Positions 10,086 to 63,492 of a stretch of 64,000 bases of DNA are shown piece by piece. Positions within the stretch are counted from its first letter, which is position 1; every line of letters begins with the position of its first letter. A program made the translations under genes and the position numbers. The notes below the pieces were generated by a model that did not search any database, was not told the origin of the DNA, and worked only from the letters and a program-made list of their open reading frames with translations. The stretch lies in assembly GCA_013151035.1 (NCBI GenBank), contig JAADJB010000053.1, forward strand, positions 5,939 to 69,938. Reading direction: 5' to 3'. Source of the DNA: Gammaproteobacteria bacterium. Lineage in GTDB: Bacteria; Pseudomonadota; Gammaproteobacteria; JAADJB01.

Positions 10086-10161
10086 TGGTGCCGGAAAGAG
10101 GAATTGAACCCCCGACCTTTTCATTACGAATGAACTGCTCTACCGACTGAGCTATTCCGGC
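10086..10161 (-). tRNA. tRNA-Thr (anticodon CGU)
   Basis: Reverse complement reads GCCGGAATAGCTCAGTCGGTAGAGCAGTTCATTCGTAATGAAAAGGTCGGGGGTTCAATTCCTCTTTCCGGCACCA. It has a 7-bp acceptor stem and a TTCGTAA anticodon loop, and is very similar to E. coli thrW. Confidence 0.85.
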
Positions 10162-19399: not shown

Positions 19400-19869
19400 T
19401 CACCATGATCCTCTGAGGATAACGCCTCAACTAACAAAATCTCGGTTTTCAACAAGATGTCATGCCCTGCCAGCGGATGATTAAAATCAACCTGCACCTG
19501 TTCATCTTCCACTGCAATCACCAGTGCCGGTACTTCACCCTGACCTTCAAGTGAAAAAGACACCACAGAACCCGGCTTAATCTCCATATCATCAGGAAAA
19601 TCATTGCGTAAAACAGGGTAAATAGCCCCCTCCTCACGCACACCATAGGCATCTTTAGCGGTAATCAGAATTTTCTCACGACTACCAGCACGCAGACCAT
19701 AAAGCGCGTATTCCAGACCCGCTATCAAGCTGCCATCACCCATCACCAGATCAATCGGATCATCGGCAAAGGTATCCTCCACCACAGTACCATCCTCCAG
19801 CGTAATAGAGAGATGAAGCCGCACACGATCACCCGGTTCAATCACCTTCACAGGCTTATTTTCCATCAC
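19396..19869 (-). CDS. fkpB: FKBP-type peptidyl-prolyl cis-trans isomerase (FkpB/SlpA-like)
   Basis: 157 aa; [31 protein letters not shown] fold; conserved position between lspA and ispH. Confidence 0.85.
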
Positions 19870-20362
19870 TACTATCCTGAGTTTTAATACTATCCACCAG
19901 TAGCAATACCACCCCTACCGTAATCGCTGAATCGGCAATATTAAATGCCGGCCAGTGCCAGCCATTATAATAGACATCAATAAAATCGATAACGTAACCG
20001 TGCAATAGACGATCTACAATATTACCAATGGCACCACCCAGAACCAAAGCAAGAGCGATTGCCACACGTCTATCCGCACGCGACAAACCCCGCATCCAGA
20101 ATAATAATACTGTACTAATCACCACCCCGATAACAACAAAGAACCAGCGTTGCCAACCCGAGGCATCACTCAAAAAACTAAAGGCAGCCCCAGGGTTATA
20201 AAGTAACAAGAGATTCAACTGCGGAATAAGTGCAACCGGTTGAGCATAATCCAGACCCGTATCCGCCAGATACTTCGTCAACTGATCCAACACCAGCACC
20301 AGCAAGGATAACCACAACCACGACAACATCGAACTAGATTTAACCATTACACACCCTATCAA
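19856..20362 (-). CDS. lspA: lipoprotein signal peptidase II
   Basis: Four predicted TM segments plus NIVDRL and FNIAD motifs. The true start is probably a few codons into the ORF. Confidence 0.85.
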   Translation of the reverse strand: MIGCVMVKSSSMLSWLWLSLLVLVLDQLTKYLADTGLDYAQPVALIPQLNLLLLYNPGAAFSFLSDASGWQRWFFVVIGVVISTVLLFWMRGLSRADRRVAIALALVLGGAIGNIVDRLLHGYVIDFIDVYYNGWHWPAFNIADSAITVGVVLLLVDSIKTQDSSDGK

Positions 20363-20370
20363 CTACTCAA

Positions 20371-20477
20371 GAGGCAGGGATTGCTCCTCTCTAACAGAGA
20401 CCGTCAGCCGCAGGGATGCGAGCCTACACGGACGTATTCACGGCGTGTCTCTGTTAGAGAGGAGCAATCCCTGCCTC
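20371..20477. repeat. intergenic palindromic element, family B, copy 1 (perfect 31-bp inverted repeat around a 45-nt core)
   Basis: gaggcagggattgctcctctctaacagagac ... gtctctgttagagaggagcaatccctgcctc. The core gagcctacacggacgtattcacggcgtgtctctg is shared with 55005-55090. Confidence 0.75.
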
Positions 20478-20482
20478 GAACT

Positions 20483-23317
20483 TCAAGCATATTGCCGCTG
20501 CTCACCATGCCCATCAACATTCTCAATACAACGCCCACACAACTCAGGATGTTGCTCACTCAACCCCACATCCTCACAATGATGCCAACAACGCGTACAC
20601 TTGTTATGTTCCGATGCCTCAACCCTGACCCATAGTGGTTGCCCATCACAATCAAGTTCAACAATCTGATCCGGTCGTTCCTCCGCAGAATACAGACGCG
20701 CCGACGAGGTAATCAACACAAAGCGTAATTCATCCTCCAGTCGAGACAAAACATCCAGCAAACCTTGCTCACAATACAAGCTAACCTCCGCACCCAGCGA
20801 AGAACCAATATCACCGGCTACACGCACTCGTTCGAGTTCCTTGCCCACTGCCGTACGCACAGTAATCACCTGACCCCATATTGCCATATCAAGCACACGG
20901 CCATCACTGGTCTTCATCTCCGGGATCTCTGGCAATGCGTACCATTGATCAAGAAATACCGAGTCGCCATGTTCACCCGGTATCTGCTGCCAGATTTCTT
21001 CTGCAGTAAAACTCAGAATAGGAGCAACCCAGCGTACCAGCGCTTCAATGATGTAATACATTGCGGTCTGTGCTGAACGTCTGGCAACACTATCAGCCTG
21101 TGTGGTGTACTGTCGATCCTTGATAATATCGAGATAAAAACCACCCATGTCCGTTGCACAAAAATGATGGATCTTCTGATAGATTTGGTGAAATTCATAT
21201 TGTTCATAGGTCTGACACAAATCCTGTTGTAACAAACGCGTCTTTTCTACAGCCCAACGATCCAGTGCCAACATCTGATCGACGGGCAAAATATGTTCTA
21301 GCGGATCAAAACCATTGAGATTAGCCAATAGAAAACGTGCCGTATTACGAATACGTCGATAAGAGTCTGCGGTACGTTTGAGGATCTCATCCGAGACATG
21401 CATCTCACCACGATAATCGGTGGCTGCCACCCATAGACGCAAGATATCAGCACCCAGGTTTGAAATAATCTTCTGTGGTGCAACGACATTACCCTTGGAC
21501 TTGGACATCTTCTGTCCCTTGGCATCAACTACAAAACCATGCGTCAACACAGCCTTATAAGGTGCCTTGCCCTGCATTGCTACCGCACTTAATAGTGACG
21601 ACTGAAACCATCCTCGATGCTGATCGGAACCTTCCAGGTACAAGTCTGCCGGGGCATGTAGCTGTTGCCGACGATCCAGCACACAGTGATGCGAGGAACC
21701 CGAGTCAAACCAGACATCAAGGGTATCGGTTAATTTGTCATAGTCTCCGGCATCCGTACCGAGCAGATCTTCTGCCTCCAGCTCAAACCAGCCATCAACT
21801 CCCTTTTCTTCCACCAACCGTGCAACCTGTTCAATCAGCTTATGGGTATCGGGATGCAGCTCACCCGTGGTTTTATGGATAAACAAGGCAATGGGCACAC
21901 CCCAGGTACGTTGTCTGGAGACACACCAGTCGGGGCGATTCTCCACCATTGATTCAATCCTTGCCTGACCCCAGTCCGGCATCCACTGTACCTTACCAAT
22001 CTCTTTCATAGCCGCATCACGCAGACCATTTCGTTCCATGCTGATAAACCACTGCGGTGTAGCGCGAAAGATAATCGGTGTCTTGTGTCGCCAGCAATGC
22101 GGATAGCTATGTAATACGGCCTCTTCACGCAACAGCGCACCTTTGGCCTTAAGCACCTCAATCACATGATCATTCGCCTTAAATACATGTTCTCCGGCAA
22201 ATATTTCTGTGTCCGGCAGGAAGCAACCATTAGAACCCACAGGGTTATCCACGGCTAACCTATAACGCAGCCCCACGGCATAATCATCCTGACCATGTCC
22301 CGGTGCCGTATGCACCGCGCCTGTTCCTGCTTCAAGGCTAACATGATCGCCCAGAATCACCGGCACCTCACGCTGATAAAATGGGTGCGCGAGTTTCAGT
22401 CCTTCCAGATCAGAGCCCTTGCAATAGGCTAGCACACGATAGGTCTCTATCTCGTAACGCACCATCGTATCCTTCATCAGACCTTCAGCCATTAACAGCC
22501 GTTCATGTCCGCAATCAACCACTACATATTCCAGTTCAGGGTTCACTGCAACCGCCTGGTTGGCTGGTAAGGTCCAGGGCGTTGTGGTCCAGATCACCAC
22601 TGACAATGGCCCCTTGCCTTCACCCCCCTCAGCATGATGACAACGCGCCATCAGTGCCTCATCATCCAGCACCCGAAAACGCACATCAATCGCTGGTGAG
22701 GTCTTGTCCTCATATTCAACCTCGGCCTCAGCCAGAGCTGAACCACAATCAATACACCAATGCACGGGTTTAGAACCCTTGTGCAGGTGTCCATTCTCCG
22801 CAATCTGACCCAGCGAACGAATAATATCGGCCTCGAACTGGAAGTCCATGGTCAGGTAAGGGTTATCCCAATCGGCAACGATACCTAAACGAATAAAATC
22901 TTTCTTTTGCCCATCCACCTGTTTTTTTGCATATTCCCGGCAGGCGCGACGAAAGGTAGCCGCATCCACCTTGTGCCCGGCCTTACCCACCTTCTTCTCA
23001 ACATTGAGTTCAATCGGCAGGCCATGACAATCCCAACCCGGCACGTAAGGCGTATTAAAACCGGACAGGGTTTTACTCTTGATAATAATATCCTTGAGCA
23101 CCTTGTTGACCGCATGACCAATATGGATATTACCATTGGCGTAGGGCGGGCCATCATGCAGGATAAAATCAGGCCGATCCTTACCCTGCTCGATCAGGCG
23201 CTGGTAAAGATTAATCTCATCCCAACGTTTAAGAATCAAGGGTTCACGATTTGCCAGATTAGCCTTCATGGCAAAAGCCGTTTTTGGAAGATTTAATGTA
23301 TCTTTGTAATTCGCCAC
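20483..23317 (-). CDS. ileS: isoleucine--tRNA ligase
   Basis: 944 aa with the HIGH motif ([14 protein letters not shown]), KMSKS (KMSKSKGN) and a C-terminal zinc-finger Cys cluster. Confidence 0.95.
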
Positions 23318-25947: not shown

Positions 25948-26014
25948 GGGGACAGACCCCAATTAAAAGGGCGGTGCTTTATAAGCACCACCCCTTTAAT
26001 TGGGGTCTGTCCCC
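25948..26014. repeat. GGGGACAGAC-family palindromic hairpin element, copy 1
   Basis: ggggacagaccccaattaaaaggg-cggtgctttataagcacca-cccctttaattggggtctgtcccc. Lies between the divergent murJ and rpsT. Confidence 0.75.
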
Positions 26015-26362: not shown

Positions 26363-26430
26363 CGGGGACAGACCCCAATTAAAAAGGGGTGCTTTATGAG
26401 CACCCCTTTTTAATTGGGGTCTGTCCCCGG
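26363..26430. terminator. GGGGACAGAC-family palindromic hairpin element, copy 2; bidirectional terminator between rpsT and phoU
   Basis: Perfect 30-bp stem (ggggacagaccccaattaaaaaggggtgct / agcacccctttttaattggggtctgtcccc) with loop ttatg, followed by TTTT. Confidence 0.8.
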
Positions 26431-31993: not shown

Positions 31994-32018
31994 GGGGACA
32001 GACTTTAAGTCTGTCCCC
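31994..32018. repeat. GGGGACAGAC-family hairpin, copy 3 (short form), in the pstS-pstC intergenic region
   Basis: ggggacagac-tttaa-gtctgtcccc, a 10-bp stem. Positioned like the pstS-pstC mRNA stem-loop of other bacteria. Confidence 0.7.
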
Positions 32019-54896: not shown

Positions 54897-54917
54897 ATCT
54901 TTCGGCACAATCTTGAA

Positions 54918-54951
54918 AGGGCTGCATTCCACCCGGATGCGGCCTTTTTTT
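54918..54951 (+). terminator. rho-independent terminator of adk
   Basis: gggctgcat-tccacccgg-atgcggcc followed by TTTTTTT. Confidence 0.75.
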
Positions 54952-55004
54952 ATGGGTTATAATTATCATCATTGCTGTCCCATTAACTCAAGAGACAGGA
55001 ATTG

Positions 55005-55090
55005 CGTTTCTCTATCAGAGATCCTTGCCCGCATGGACGCGGGCGTGGAGCCTACATGGATGTATTCACGGCGTGTCTCTGGTAGAGAAA
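55005..55090. repeat. intergenic palindromic element, family B, copy 2
   Basis: cgtttctctatcagagat ... gagcctacatggatgtattcacggcgtgtctctggtagagaaacg. The core is about 90% identical to 20421-20460. 18-bp imperfect inverted-repeat arms, with an inner gcccgcatggacgcgggc hairpin. Confidence 0.75.
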
Positions 55091-55191
55091 CGTGATTCAT
55101 GTCTCGAACTTACCAGGCATTTTTTTCGATGAACATCATGCTATTACAGTAATTACATAAATTCTTAACGGAACAGCAGTGAATTATCATA

Positions 55192-61269: not shown

Positions 61270-61321
61270 GGGGACAGAGCGAAAAGGGGAGCCTTTGGCT
61301 CCCCTTTTTTGCTCTGTCCCC
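61270..61321. repeat. GGGGACAGAC-family hairpin, copy 4 (variant termini GGGGACAGAGC); terminator-like after the Rrf2 gene
   Basis: ggggacagagc-gaaaa-ggggagcc-tttg-gctcccc-tttttt-gctctgtcccc. Confidence 0.7.
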
Positions 61322-63443: not shown

Positions 63444-63492
63444 GGGGACAGACCTTTAGCTGGGGACAGCCCCCCAAAACGGGTCTGTCCCC
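63444..63492. repeat. GGGGACAGAC-family hairpin, copy 5
   Basis: ggggacagacc-tttagctggggacagccccccaaaac-gggtctgtcccc, between the divergent ycgN and typA. Confidence 0.65.

Follow-up and report, generated by a model that had tools for sequence, protein, structure and literature searches.

An intergenic palindromic repeat of an uncultured gammaproteobacterium and its relation to the TwoAYGGAY motif and the YPAL/RU-2 element

The TwoAYGGAY RNA motif (Rfam RF01731) has two terminal AYGGAY loops and a closing stem, P1, which is often very large (24 bp, for example); it ranges over Clostridia, gammaproteobacteria and gut metagenomes, its alignment holds many copies from Psychromonas ingrahamii, and it was judged not to be cis-regulatory (Weinberg et al. 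2010, PMC2864571). Gardner and Eldai proposed that the motif binds or sequesters CsrA (PMC4333381). YPAL, also named RU-2, is a miniature inverted-repeat transposable element (MITE) of Yersinia, for which PMC2229807 describes filled and empty sites, variable target duplications, recent mobility and a position next to dyad symmetries; the RU-2 sequence of Y. pestis CO92 was printed by Delihas in 2007 (PMC2759123). Here we compare with these systems a palindromic element that occurs twice in a 64-kb stretch of DNA from an uncultured gammaproteobacterium (contig JAADJB010000053.1, a 97-kb contig of a metagenome assembly; the whole stretch is hereafter called the window, and repeat coordinates refer to its + strand).

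A preliminary description had assigned the two copies to a second intergenic palindromic family with an unexplained conserved core of about 40 nt, either MITE-like or a structured RNA. The feature is real, structured and distinct, yet it is a member of a mobile repeat and RNA motif family that was already known. Both alternatives named in that description were apt, as the superfamily has been described as a MITE (YPAL/RU-2) and as an RNA motif (TwoAYGGAY in Rfam). From their sequence identity, fold and mobile behaviour, both copies are probably examples of a mobile palindromic repeat of ~120 bp, of the MITE or repetitive extragenic palindromic (REP) kind, within the TwoAYGGAY/YPAL superfamily. 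The conserved 40-mer of the window thereby becomes an annotated repeat, and three separate database entities are joined, namely, the 'cis-regulatory' motif TwoAYGGAY, the 'small RNA' (sRNA) Ysr224 and the MITE YPAL/RU-2.

The two copies in the window

A degenerate 41-mer representing the core matched the window exactly at two positions, 20420-20460 and 55048-55088, both on the + strand, and had no match in 100 dinucleotide-preserving shuffles. These are the two sites first reported, whose coordinates had been one base off at the start of copy 1 and at the end of copy 2. Each core lies inside an element of ~120 nt with a 31-bp closing stem, and the repeated unit is wider than the core: the alignment of both copies runs from ACTCAA on the left to GAACTT on the right, outside the stems. 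The covariance model R1, built from the family alignment described below, gave both units the scores listed here and, when run unfiltered, found no third copy in the 64-kb window. The parts of the two copies are as follows.

20365-20483, + strand: copy 1, whole unit, consisting of the ACTCAA flank, a 107-nt hairpin and the GAACTT flank (R1 68.7 bits, E 6e-16)
20371-20401, + strand: copy 1, 5' arm of P1, 31 nt, 31/31 Watson-Crick pairs with 20447-20477
20447-20477, + strand: copy 1, 3' arm of P1, 31 nt, partner of 20371-20401
20402-20421, + strand: copy 1, damaged P2, with CGUC, AGCCGC and the loop AGGGAU kept and the 3' arm reduced to GCG
20422-20444, + strand: copy 1, P3 hairpin, GCC-UAC-[ACGGAC]-GUA-UUCAC-GGC (from the sequence and the model alignment)
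54986-55111, + strand: copy 2, whole unit, intact (R1 88.4 bits, E 3.5e-21)
54992-55022, + strand: copy 2, 5' arm of P1, 31 nt, pairing with 55075-55105
55075-55105, + strand: copy 2, 3' arm of P1, 31 nt, partner of 54992-55022 in the minimum free energy (MFE) fold
55023-55048, + strand: copy 2, P2, with the stem GCCCGC/GCGGGC (55027-55032 with 55039-55044) and the loop AUGGAC (55033-55038)
55050-55072, + strand: copy 2, P3, GCC-UAC-[AUGGAU]-GUA-UUCAC-GGC

The perfect 31-bp inverted repeat of copy 1 spans exactly the 20371-20477 originally given. Its outer part had been regarded as an addition peculiar to copy 1, but copy 2 has an equal 31-bp outer stem, which was overlooked because four G.U pairs and one mismatch occur among its 31 pairs. 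Read on the + strand, this stem consists of 26 Watson-Crick pairs, the four G.U pairs and the single mismatch, whereas the - strand gives five mismatches and no G.U pair. Between the two copies, P1 differs at 10 positions, five of which are fully compensatory double changes. The inner GCCCGC...GCGGGC hairpin previously noticed in copy 2 is real and corresponds to P2, which is extended at the junction by the pairs C55023-G55048 and C55024-G55047. In copy 1, the 3' arm of P2 has lost 7 nt compared with the family consensus (a 7-position gap in the R1 alignment, with the P2 columns unpaired), and P2 was not formed in the single-sequence MFE fold of this copy. The folding energies on the + strand were -80.3 kcal/mol for copy 1 (z -13.3 versus shuffles) and -65.5 kcal/mol for copy 2 (z -8.6 versus shuffles).

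Relatives, covariation and family assignment

A genome scan with the exact core 20-mer detected one copy in Parahaliea aestuarii and one in a Pseudohongiella metagenome-assembled genome. These copies share the core and have wholly different yet complementary long arms, and a second, diverged copy is located nearby at each of the two loci; one further hit of the scan (L001) was a chance match within coding sequence. With a 21-nt degenerate core pattern, we found six contigs in a viral collection, four of which carry YPAL/RU-2 identical to RU-2 of Y. pestis CO92, and, in public metagenomes, at least 120 stretches holding at least 144 instances in all. The core-pattern matches listed constitute the family sample, for which gene contexts were inferred from open reading frames (ORFs) rather than from annotation. 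The core search proposed as a check thus yielded far more than two copies in nature (in genomes, the viral collection and metagenomes), and the environmental branch of the superfamily is very common in metagenomes. Two of the viral-collection matches (L004 3330-3401 and L006 195-270) are GC-rich variants that reach only 30-38 bits with R1, and the core of L006 lies among TGTGGGAGCG... repeats resembling Pseudomonas REP sequences.

From this sample, we aligned 88 non-redundant elements, each cut to 14 bp of P1 plus the core, and built R1 from the alignment. The structure counted comprised P1; P2, in which junction pairs and an internal loop lead to a 6-bp stem capped by six loop nucleotides; an unpaired A; P3, with GCC/GGC followed by UAC/GUA, ANGGAY as its loop and UUYAC as a bulge; and GU ahead of the closure of P1. 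Across the 88 elements, the 30 pairs of this structure were paired in 87.6% of cases, compared with 62.1% in shuffled alignments and 30-43% with slid partners, and the covariation score was likewise higher (0.616 versus 0.165). Double-sided changes were detected in 14/14 pairs of P1 and 9/9 pairs of P2, and the junction pair 17-45 was C-G in 49 elements and U-A in 24. Without any structure being supplied, RNAalifold recovered P1, P2 and the junction pairs. Covariation, which had also been proposed as a check, is therefore abundant, and the possibility that the family is limited to two copies without covariation fails on both counts.

A clear stem was present in 105 instances, in which the median length of P1 is 30 bp and virtually no two P1 sequences are the same; the sequence of P1 drifts quickly yet stays paired. 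In L011, L029, L031, L064, L090 and L101/L121, the palindrome exceeds the ~30-bp P1 via internal loops and reaches 50-60 bp per arm. P3 is supported by the Rfam alignment, by single-sequence folds and by the alternation of C:G, U:A and G.A at its base. The bottom pair of P3 (A2 columns 49/67; window positions 20424/20442 and 55052/55070) is C:G in 65 elements and U:A in 3, while 20/88 are non-standard, by eye mostly G.A (GCGUAC with ACAGCG). This tight non-Watson-Crick alternation at the base of P3 may reflect a tertiary or protein contact.

The pairs within P1 also bear on the question of which strand is folded. In a neutral double-stranded palindrome, G.U and A.C are expected to be equally frequent, and the stem-finding rule used here treats the two alike. 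The 105 stems contained 2787 Watson-Crick pairs, 142 G.U pairs, 43 A.C pairs and 104 other mismatches, and the excess of G.U over A.C has a binomial p of 1.5e-13. Since G.U exceeds A.C, selection acts on the strand carrying the GGA loops as the folded single strand, either as RNA or as single-stranded DNA.

At gathering thresholds, the Rfam scan of the whole window returned a tRNA only, the gene at 10089-10161 (- strand, RF00005, 67 bits) being the sole match of this level. In a permissive scan, copy 2 matched TwoAYGGAY over the full model (1-168/168) with 28.3 bits and E 0.0084; copy 1 gave nothing but generic miRNA-hairpin noise. Several properties characteristic of TwoAYGGAY are found in the element: the loops of copy 2 read AUGGAC and AUGGAU, P1 is large (31 bp in both copies, median 30 bp in the 105 relatives), and the fold is branched, with P1, P2 and the junction pairs covarying. 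As to YPAL, the core GAGCCUACAUGGAUGUAUU(C/U)ACGGCG is common to the element and to the printed Y. pestis RU-2/YPAL sequence, and R1, which was built without YPAL sequences, scores YPAL copies at 64-72 bits over the full length of the model. YPAL is reportedly the subject of a paper by De Gregorio from 2006, as a miniature insertion sequence of Yersinia.

The third entity, Ysr224 (RF02770), matched copy 2 on the reverse strand with 15.4 bits (cut-off 70) through the near-identical AAUACAUCCAUGUAGGCUC. The YPAL copies in L010 (1553-1670), L007 (6178-6295) and L009 (3277-3394) scored 133 bits with Ysr224, on the strand opposite the GGA loops, and no clan is listed in Rfam for Ysr224. As Ysr224 covers the strand of YPAL opposite the GGA loops, the Rfam 'sRNA' seems to represent, in reverse complement, a mobile repeat with the TwoAYGGAY fold. 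TwoAYGGAY, Ysr224 (on the opposite strand) and YPAL/RU-2 appear to form one superfamily sharing a single fold. Conjugative plasmids from Klebsiella, Citrobacter, E. coli and Shigella, most of them of wastewater origin (NZ_CP067312.1, NZ_CP055058.1, NZ_AP022395.1 and others; H8-H22), also carry an element 75% identical to YPAL, in unannotated DNA. Two other structured elements were considered and rejected: integron attC sites, for which the R'/R''-like GTTRRRY boxes are partial and present in only a few stems, conservation is found at the apex instead of the ends, and a cassette context is lacking; and a hammerhead or other self-cleaving ribozyme, to which CUGAUAGAGAAAC on the minus strand of copy 2 bears a likeness that is not kept in copy 1 and has no support from Rfam.

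Gene context and dispersal

The features next to the two copies are the following.

20483-23317, - strand: ileS, with the stop TGA (20485-20483) adjoining the shared flank of copy 1 (from the ORF list and the sequence)
19856-20347, - strand: lspA (signal peptidase II), with its ATG at 20347, 18 nt from the flank of copy 1 (homologues with PF01252)
54917-54951, + strand: adk intrinsic terminator, a hairpin AAAGGGCUGCAU...AUGCGGCC plus a T7 run, kept in the relative L133

Copy 1 lies in the gap between the stop codon of ileS and the start of lspA, in antisense orientation to this - strand gene pair and with only 6-18 nt of room per side. The copies had been placed after lspA and after adk; in the sense of transcription, copy 1 does not follow lspA. 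Copy 2 lies ~40 nt 3' of the adk terminator and 80 nt 5' of the next + strand ORF, in the same sense as both adk and the downstream gene.

The history of both copies can be read from the relatives of the window contig, which are labelled Gammaproteobacteria or Chromatiales and among whose loci (n=8) none gave a covariance-model match. The nearest relative for adk, L133, encodes an Adk that is 93% identical, followed by an orthologous ORF that is 70% identical; here the terminator is kept, the next gene begins after 54 bp and the element is absent. In L132, a contig from the same sample with a 78% identical LspA, the ileS-lspA spacer measures 78 nt and keeps only a remnant, GCACAGAGACTCGCCGTGAAACC, which matches the inner 3' arm and the end of the core at 20/23 nt in the same orientation. 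In a 90%-identical relative, the contig breaks exactly at the boundary of copy 1. Because the site in L133 is empty, L132 holds a remnant and P2 is deleted in copy 1, we conclude that close lineages differ in whether they have copy 2 and that copy 1 is an old insertion in decay, through the deletion in P2 in the window and a more extensive one in L132. This history is in keeping with YPAL as described in PMC2229807, that is, as a recently mobile element.

Two ORFs cross the elements, 20381-20635 (+, 84 codons) and 54913-55095 (+, 60 codons); both are probably spurious and at risk of being mis-called, the same risk that Delihas remarked for YPAL (PMC2759123). Caution is advisable against calling genes from these ORFs, or an sRNA gene at either site.

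In a crude ORF survey of the family, 15 elements were tandem-sense, 18 tandem-antisense, 19 convergent and 12 divergent, and the adjacent gene ends showed a mild lean to 3' ends (97 versus 69). The neighbouring genes differ at essentially every locus, and both orientations occur. P1 is not followed by a T-run (T frequency ~0.2 in the following 45 nt), which bears out the remark that the core is too long for a simple terminator and leads us to reject an intrinsic terminator; a scan of either copy likewise found no terminator-like site.

Closely spaced copies follow a marked rule of orientation. Among pairs less than 400 bp apart detected by nhmmer, 13 were head-to-head, that is, with the 5' ends facing, none was tail-to-tail and three were tandem, all in L070; reading the covariance-model hits gave 20 head-to-head pairs. 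Such loci include L002 1428-1736, L003 7376-7758, L019, L016, L049, L053, L054, L072, L076, L112, L113, L117, L130 and others, and at larger distances the orientations are mixed. The spacers between head-to-head partners are 61-291 bp of unrelated sequence, which rules out a conserved spacer, small gene or promoter between the partners, and several of them hold terminator-like dyads or REP-like pairs. The sole exception to the head-to-head rule is L070 9517-10721, a tandem array of four near-identical copies in the same orientation, with duplicated flanks and a unit spacing of ~240-460 bp.

An autonomous parent element was sought among the ORFs between distant pairs (L011, L012, L013, L024, L025, L027 and L102) and rejected, as these proved to be ordinary genes, encoding acyl-CoA synthetase, heptosyltransferases, oxidoreductase, sulfatase and aldolase as judged from the translations and not from a Pfam scan. 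We also discarded the idea that the 5' end tends to lie next to a hairpin or terminator: the trend was weak (flank MFE with medians of -23.1 and -18.9, p = 0.054; T-runs, 23 versus 13) and is confounded by head-to-head partners. Because the element occurs in either orientation at many unrelated intergenic sites, differs in presence between orthologous sites and decays by deletion, we regard it as mobile and largely selfish.

The window also contains the GGGGACAGAC family, from which the element had been held to be distinct; the sequences are indeed unrelated. Its sites, 25948-26014, 26364-26428, 31994-32018, 61270-61321 and 63444-63492, are separate near-perfect palindromes of ~67 bp at the first two and shorter elsewhere, with the sequence GGGGACAGACCCCAATTAAAAGGG..GCACC..CCCTTTTAATTGGGGTCTGTCCCC, and 11 arm matches were counted against 2.7 expected. 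In the metagenome contig L107, a copy of GGGGACAGAC is located 30 nt upstream of the contig's own TwoAYGGAY-like element; thus, the two families co-occur in a related organism.

Possible functions and comparison with known systems

In 77/88 elements, two CANGGANG motifs are located at the hairpin tips, the family tips reading CANGGAYG, and the motifs are spaced 22-24 nt apart in 76/77 of these and exactly 23 nt apart in 61; the motif of P2 lies outside the search pattern. The loops of copy 1, AGGGAU and ACGGAC, conform to ANGGAY, and the P2 tip of copy 2, CAUGGACG, agrees with CANGGANG. The P3 tip of copy 2, ACAUGGAUGU, agrees with A/U-CANGGANG-U/A (consensus from PMC6849547 and PMC4347634). 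In the family, the P3 tip (C)UACA(G/U)GGA(U/C)GUA agrees both with the CsrA consensus RUACARGGAUGU, obtained by systematic evolution of ligands by exponential enrichment (SELEX) and having GGA in a hairpin loop (PMC4347634), and with the RsmE consensus A/U-CANGGANG-U/A (PMC6849547). CsrA/RsmA is the most likely candidate for the partner of the two GGA loops, although we propose it tentatively and would put its chances somewhat below even, binding being deduced from the consensus match.

In the window, the + strand folds into the 31-bp P1, capped by a tight three-way junction that bears P2 and P3. As a working model, the folded strand would be either RNA or a single-stranded DNA intermediate, and its two GGA loops could clamp one CsrA/RsmA dimer. 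Transcribed copies in the sense orientation, such as copy 2, might then add a high-affinity CsrA site to a read-through transcript, or soak up CsrA, whereas antisense copies, such as copy 1, would contribute no more than a highly stable hairpin to the transcript of ileS-lspA. Copy 1, being antisense and having a broken P2, is probably just such a hairpin. If CsrA does bind, the repeats would be mobile carriers of sites for post-transcriptional regulation. The CANGGANG loops 22-24 nt apart, the identity of the folded strand, the head-to-head rule and the absence of a gene-orientation bias are handles for testing the published CsrA proposal, on a question of function that dates from 2010.

Several results weigh against the proposed family assignment, mobility or CsrA-like function. 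The TwoAYGGAY score of copy 2 is under the Rfam gathering cut-off (28.3 versus 43), and the motif was not detected in copy 1 by the permissive Rfam scan. A blastn search with copy 2 against a plasmid collection including YPAL-bearing Yersinia plasmids gave no match; because BLAST finds no similarity, the relation to YPAL depends on a core of ~35 nt together with the common fold. The pattern used for collection biases the family sample, and since it fixed the sequence of P3, the covariation test covered P1, P2 and the junction pairs; RNAalifold draws the P3 region differently. The 64-kb window contains no csrA. A target-site duplication could not be clearly defined at either copy, as AACT is present on both sides of both copies and may be the element's own, and spot checks of ~130 loci revealed no transposase beside or between copies. 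No promoter-like site above the shuffle background lies upstream of either copy. The family shows no conserved sequence before P1 and no conserved promoter or terminator flanks, the exceptions being an A that often precedes the GGC...GCC base of the stem and, in some elements including both window copies, a CGAACT that follows P1. Relative to neighbouring genes, the orientation of the elements is unbiased (15 sense and 18 antisense in tandem contexts), which argues against a host function requiring sense co-transcription. It is also unbiased in relation to GC skew (18 versus 20), a proxy that led us to reject a replication-strand bias of the IS200/IS605-like kind.

Some of these results would be expected if the element were selfish at the DNA level only, with its hairpin and ANGGAY loops recognized by a transposase or recombinase on single-stranded DNA or a cruciform, after the model of REP/REPIN recognition by RAYT transposases, so that the likeness to CsrA sites would be coincidental and without any RNA role. 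The lack of a gene-orientation bias, of an own promoter and of a terminator tail fits such an element, as do the CGTC tag before P2, with GTAG on the other strand beside it, and the head-to-head arrangement of close pairs (13 by nhmmer, 20 by the covariance model), which is like that of REP dimers (PMC3733652). Moreover, G.T wobble is tolerated in DNA hairpins, and thus the strand asymmetry is compatible with a strand-specific single-stranded DNA intermediate. However, no transposase gene was seen with the copies, albeit in spot checks only, the GC-skew bias predicted by IS200/IS605-like transposition is absent, and both tips match an independently defined CsrA/RsmE consensus of 8-10 nt at a spacing of 22-24 nt, which is much to ascribe to coincidence; overall, we consider a purely DNA-level element rather unlikely. 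A more elaborate version of the CsrA proposal is that the conserved cargo is a two-site CsrA/RsmA dimer clamp, which, on moving into transcribed intergenic regions, would spread CsrA control to new transcripts or serve as a copy-number-dependent genome-wide sponge, the element propagating as a folded single-stranded intermediate, always of the same polarity, with one arm acting as template or corrector for its partner. Three observations would point to folded single-stranded propagation: the arms evolve fast but with perfect compensation, the dimers are strictly head-to-head, and the excess of G.U is strand-specific. We know of no bacterial MITE described as spreading by an arm-templated folded single-stranded intermediate, and we regard this proposal as unlikely.

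If each copy were instead an sRNA gene, a small CsrB/RsmZ-type sponge with its own promoter that titrates CsrA in trans, the two consensus CsrA hairpins and the identity of the sense strand with the folded one would be accounted for. The Yersinia relative Ysr224 is recorded as an expressed, temperature-responsive sRNA (PMC9029176), and the proposal of CsrA sequestration by TwoAYGGAY points in the same direction (PMC4333381). Yet the strand modelled for Ysr224 is not the one that bears the GGA loops, promoter and terminator are not conserved, copy 1 is squeezed into the ileS-lspA junction with 6-18 nt to spare per side, and copies are lost or decayed in close relatives. In addition, the known sponge sRNAs carry far more than two GGA sites, and we find the gene hypothesis quite improbable. 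Very doubtful, too, is a cis-acting element kept by the need of ileS-lspA and adk, such as a terminator, an attenuator, an RNase III site or an mRNA-stabilizing hairpin. Both copies lie directly 3' of a gene, in keeping with the lean of the family to 3' ends (97 versus 69), a 31-bp hairpin of -65 to -80 kcal/mol will affect the processing of a transcript, and effects of MITE hairpins on the stability of adjacent mRNAs have been reported (PMC2229807). Against such a role, the hairpin has no T-run, adk has its own terminator upstream of copy 2, the neighbours of the family differ at essentially every locus with both orientations occurring, and the nearest relatives manage without the element at both loci. 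Chance similarity or plain local duplication, to which the presence of only two copies in the 64-kb window might be ascribed, has practically no probability left and is refuted by the lack of matches in shuffles, the at least 144 related instances elsewhere and the strong covariation.

The mobile repeat of the TwoAYGGAY/YPAL superfamily, which remains our preferred explanation, can be compared with the known systems as follows. The element resembles TwoAYGGAY in its large P1, its three-way junction with two hairpins ending in AYGGAY-type loops, its many copies in gammaproteobacteria and the absence of a tie to particular genes. It differs in P3, which in the branch of the window has 3+3 bp with a UUCAC bulge compared with ~15 bp in the Rfam consensus, in the sequence of the junction and in the first loop, which is often AGGGAU, so that the loops follow ANGGAY and not strict AYGGAY. 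With YPAL/RU-2, it shares CGUC, a GC hairpin with the loop A(A/G)GGAU, the following GAGCCUACAUGGAUGUAUUUACGGCG and the fold itself, as well as being palindromic, intergenic, multi-copy and reported beside dyad symmetries. Unlike the window element, YPAL is 167-168 bp long, with a longer, imperfect stem and unrelated arms, and its hosts are Yersinia and plasmids of Enterobacterales, whereas the window belongs to an uncultured gammaproteobacterium.

The CsrB/CsrC/RsmX/Y/Z sRNAs carry many GGA sites, and each is encoded by a single-copy gene with a GacA/UvrY-dependent promoter and an intrinsic terminator. The element is like them in presenting GGA in the loops of short hairpins that fit the CsrA/RsmE consensus, but it has two sites per unit, neither a promoter nor a terminator of its own, no multitude of GGA hairpins, and many dispersed copies in both orientations. 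Like REP, BIME and REPIN sequences, it is an intergenic palindrome that leans to gene 3' ends and forms head-to-head dimers (PMC3733652); further likenesses are the short tags (CGTC, GTAG) left unpaired next to a GC-rich hairpin and a probable mobilization in trans. In contrast to REPs, which are single hairpins of 20-40 bp, the element is ~110-130 nt long (the hairpin unit itself being 107-114 nt), with a branched core and a 30-bp stem; unlike the REPIN/RAYT system, no RAYT gene was seen beside any copy in a partial check, and the intervening ORFs are ordinary metabolic genes. Finally, ERIC/IRU, Correia/NEMIS and RUP are similar in size (~100-170 bp), in giving transcripts with long stem-loops and in their intergenic location (PMC2229807). 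Those MITEs have conserved terminal inverted repeats that match the ends of insertion sequences, and TA target duplications, whereas in the family of the window the arms are variable and it is the apical core that is conserved.

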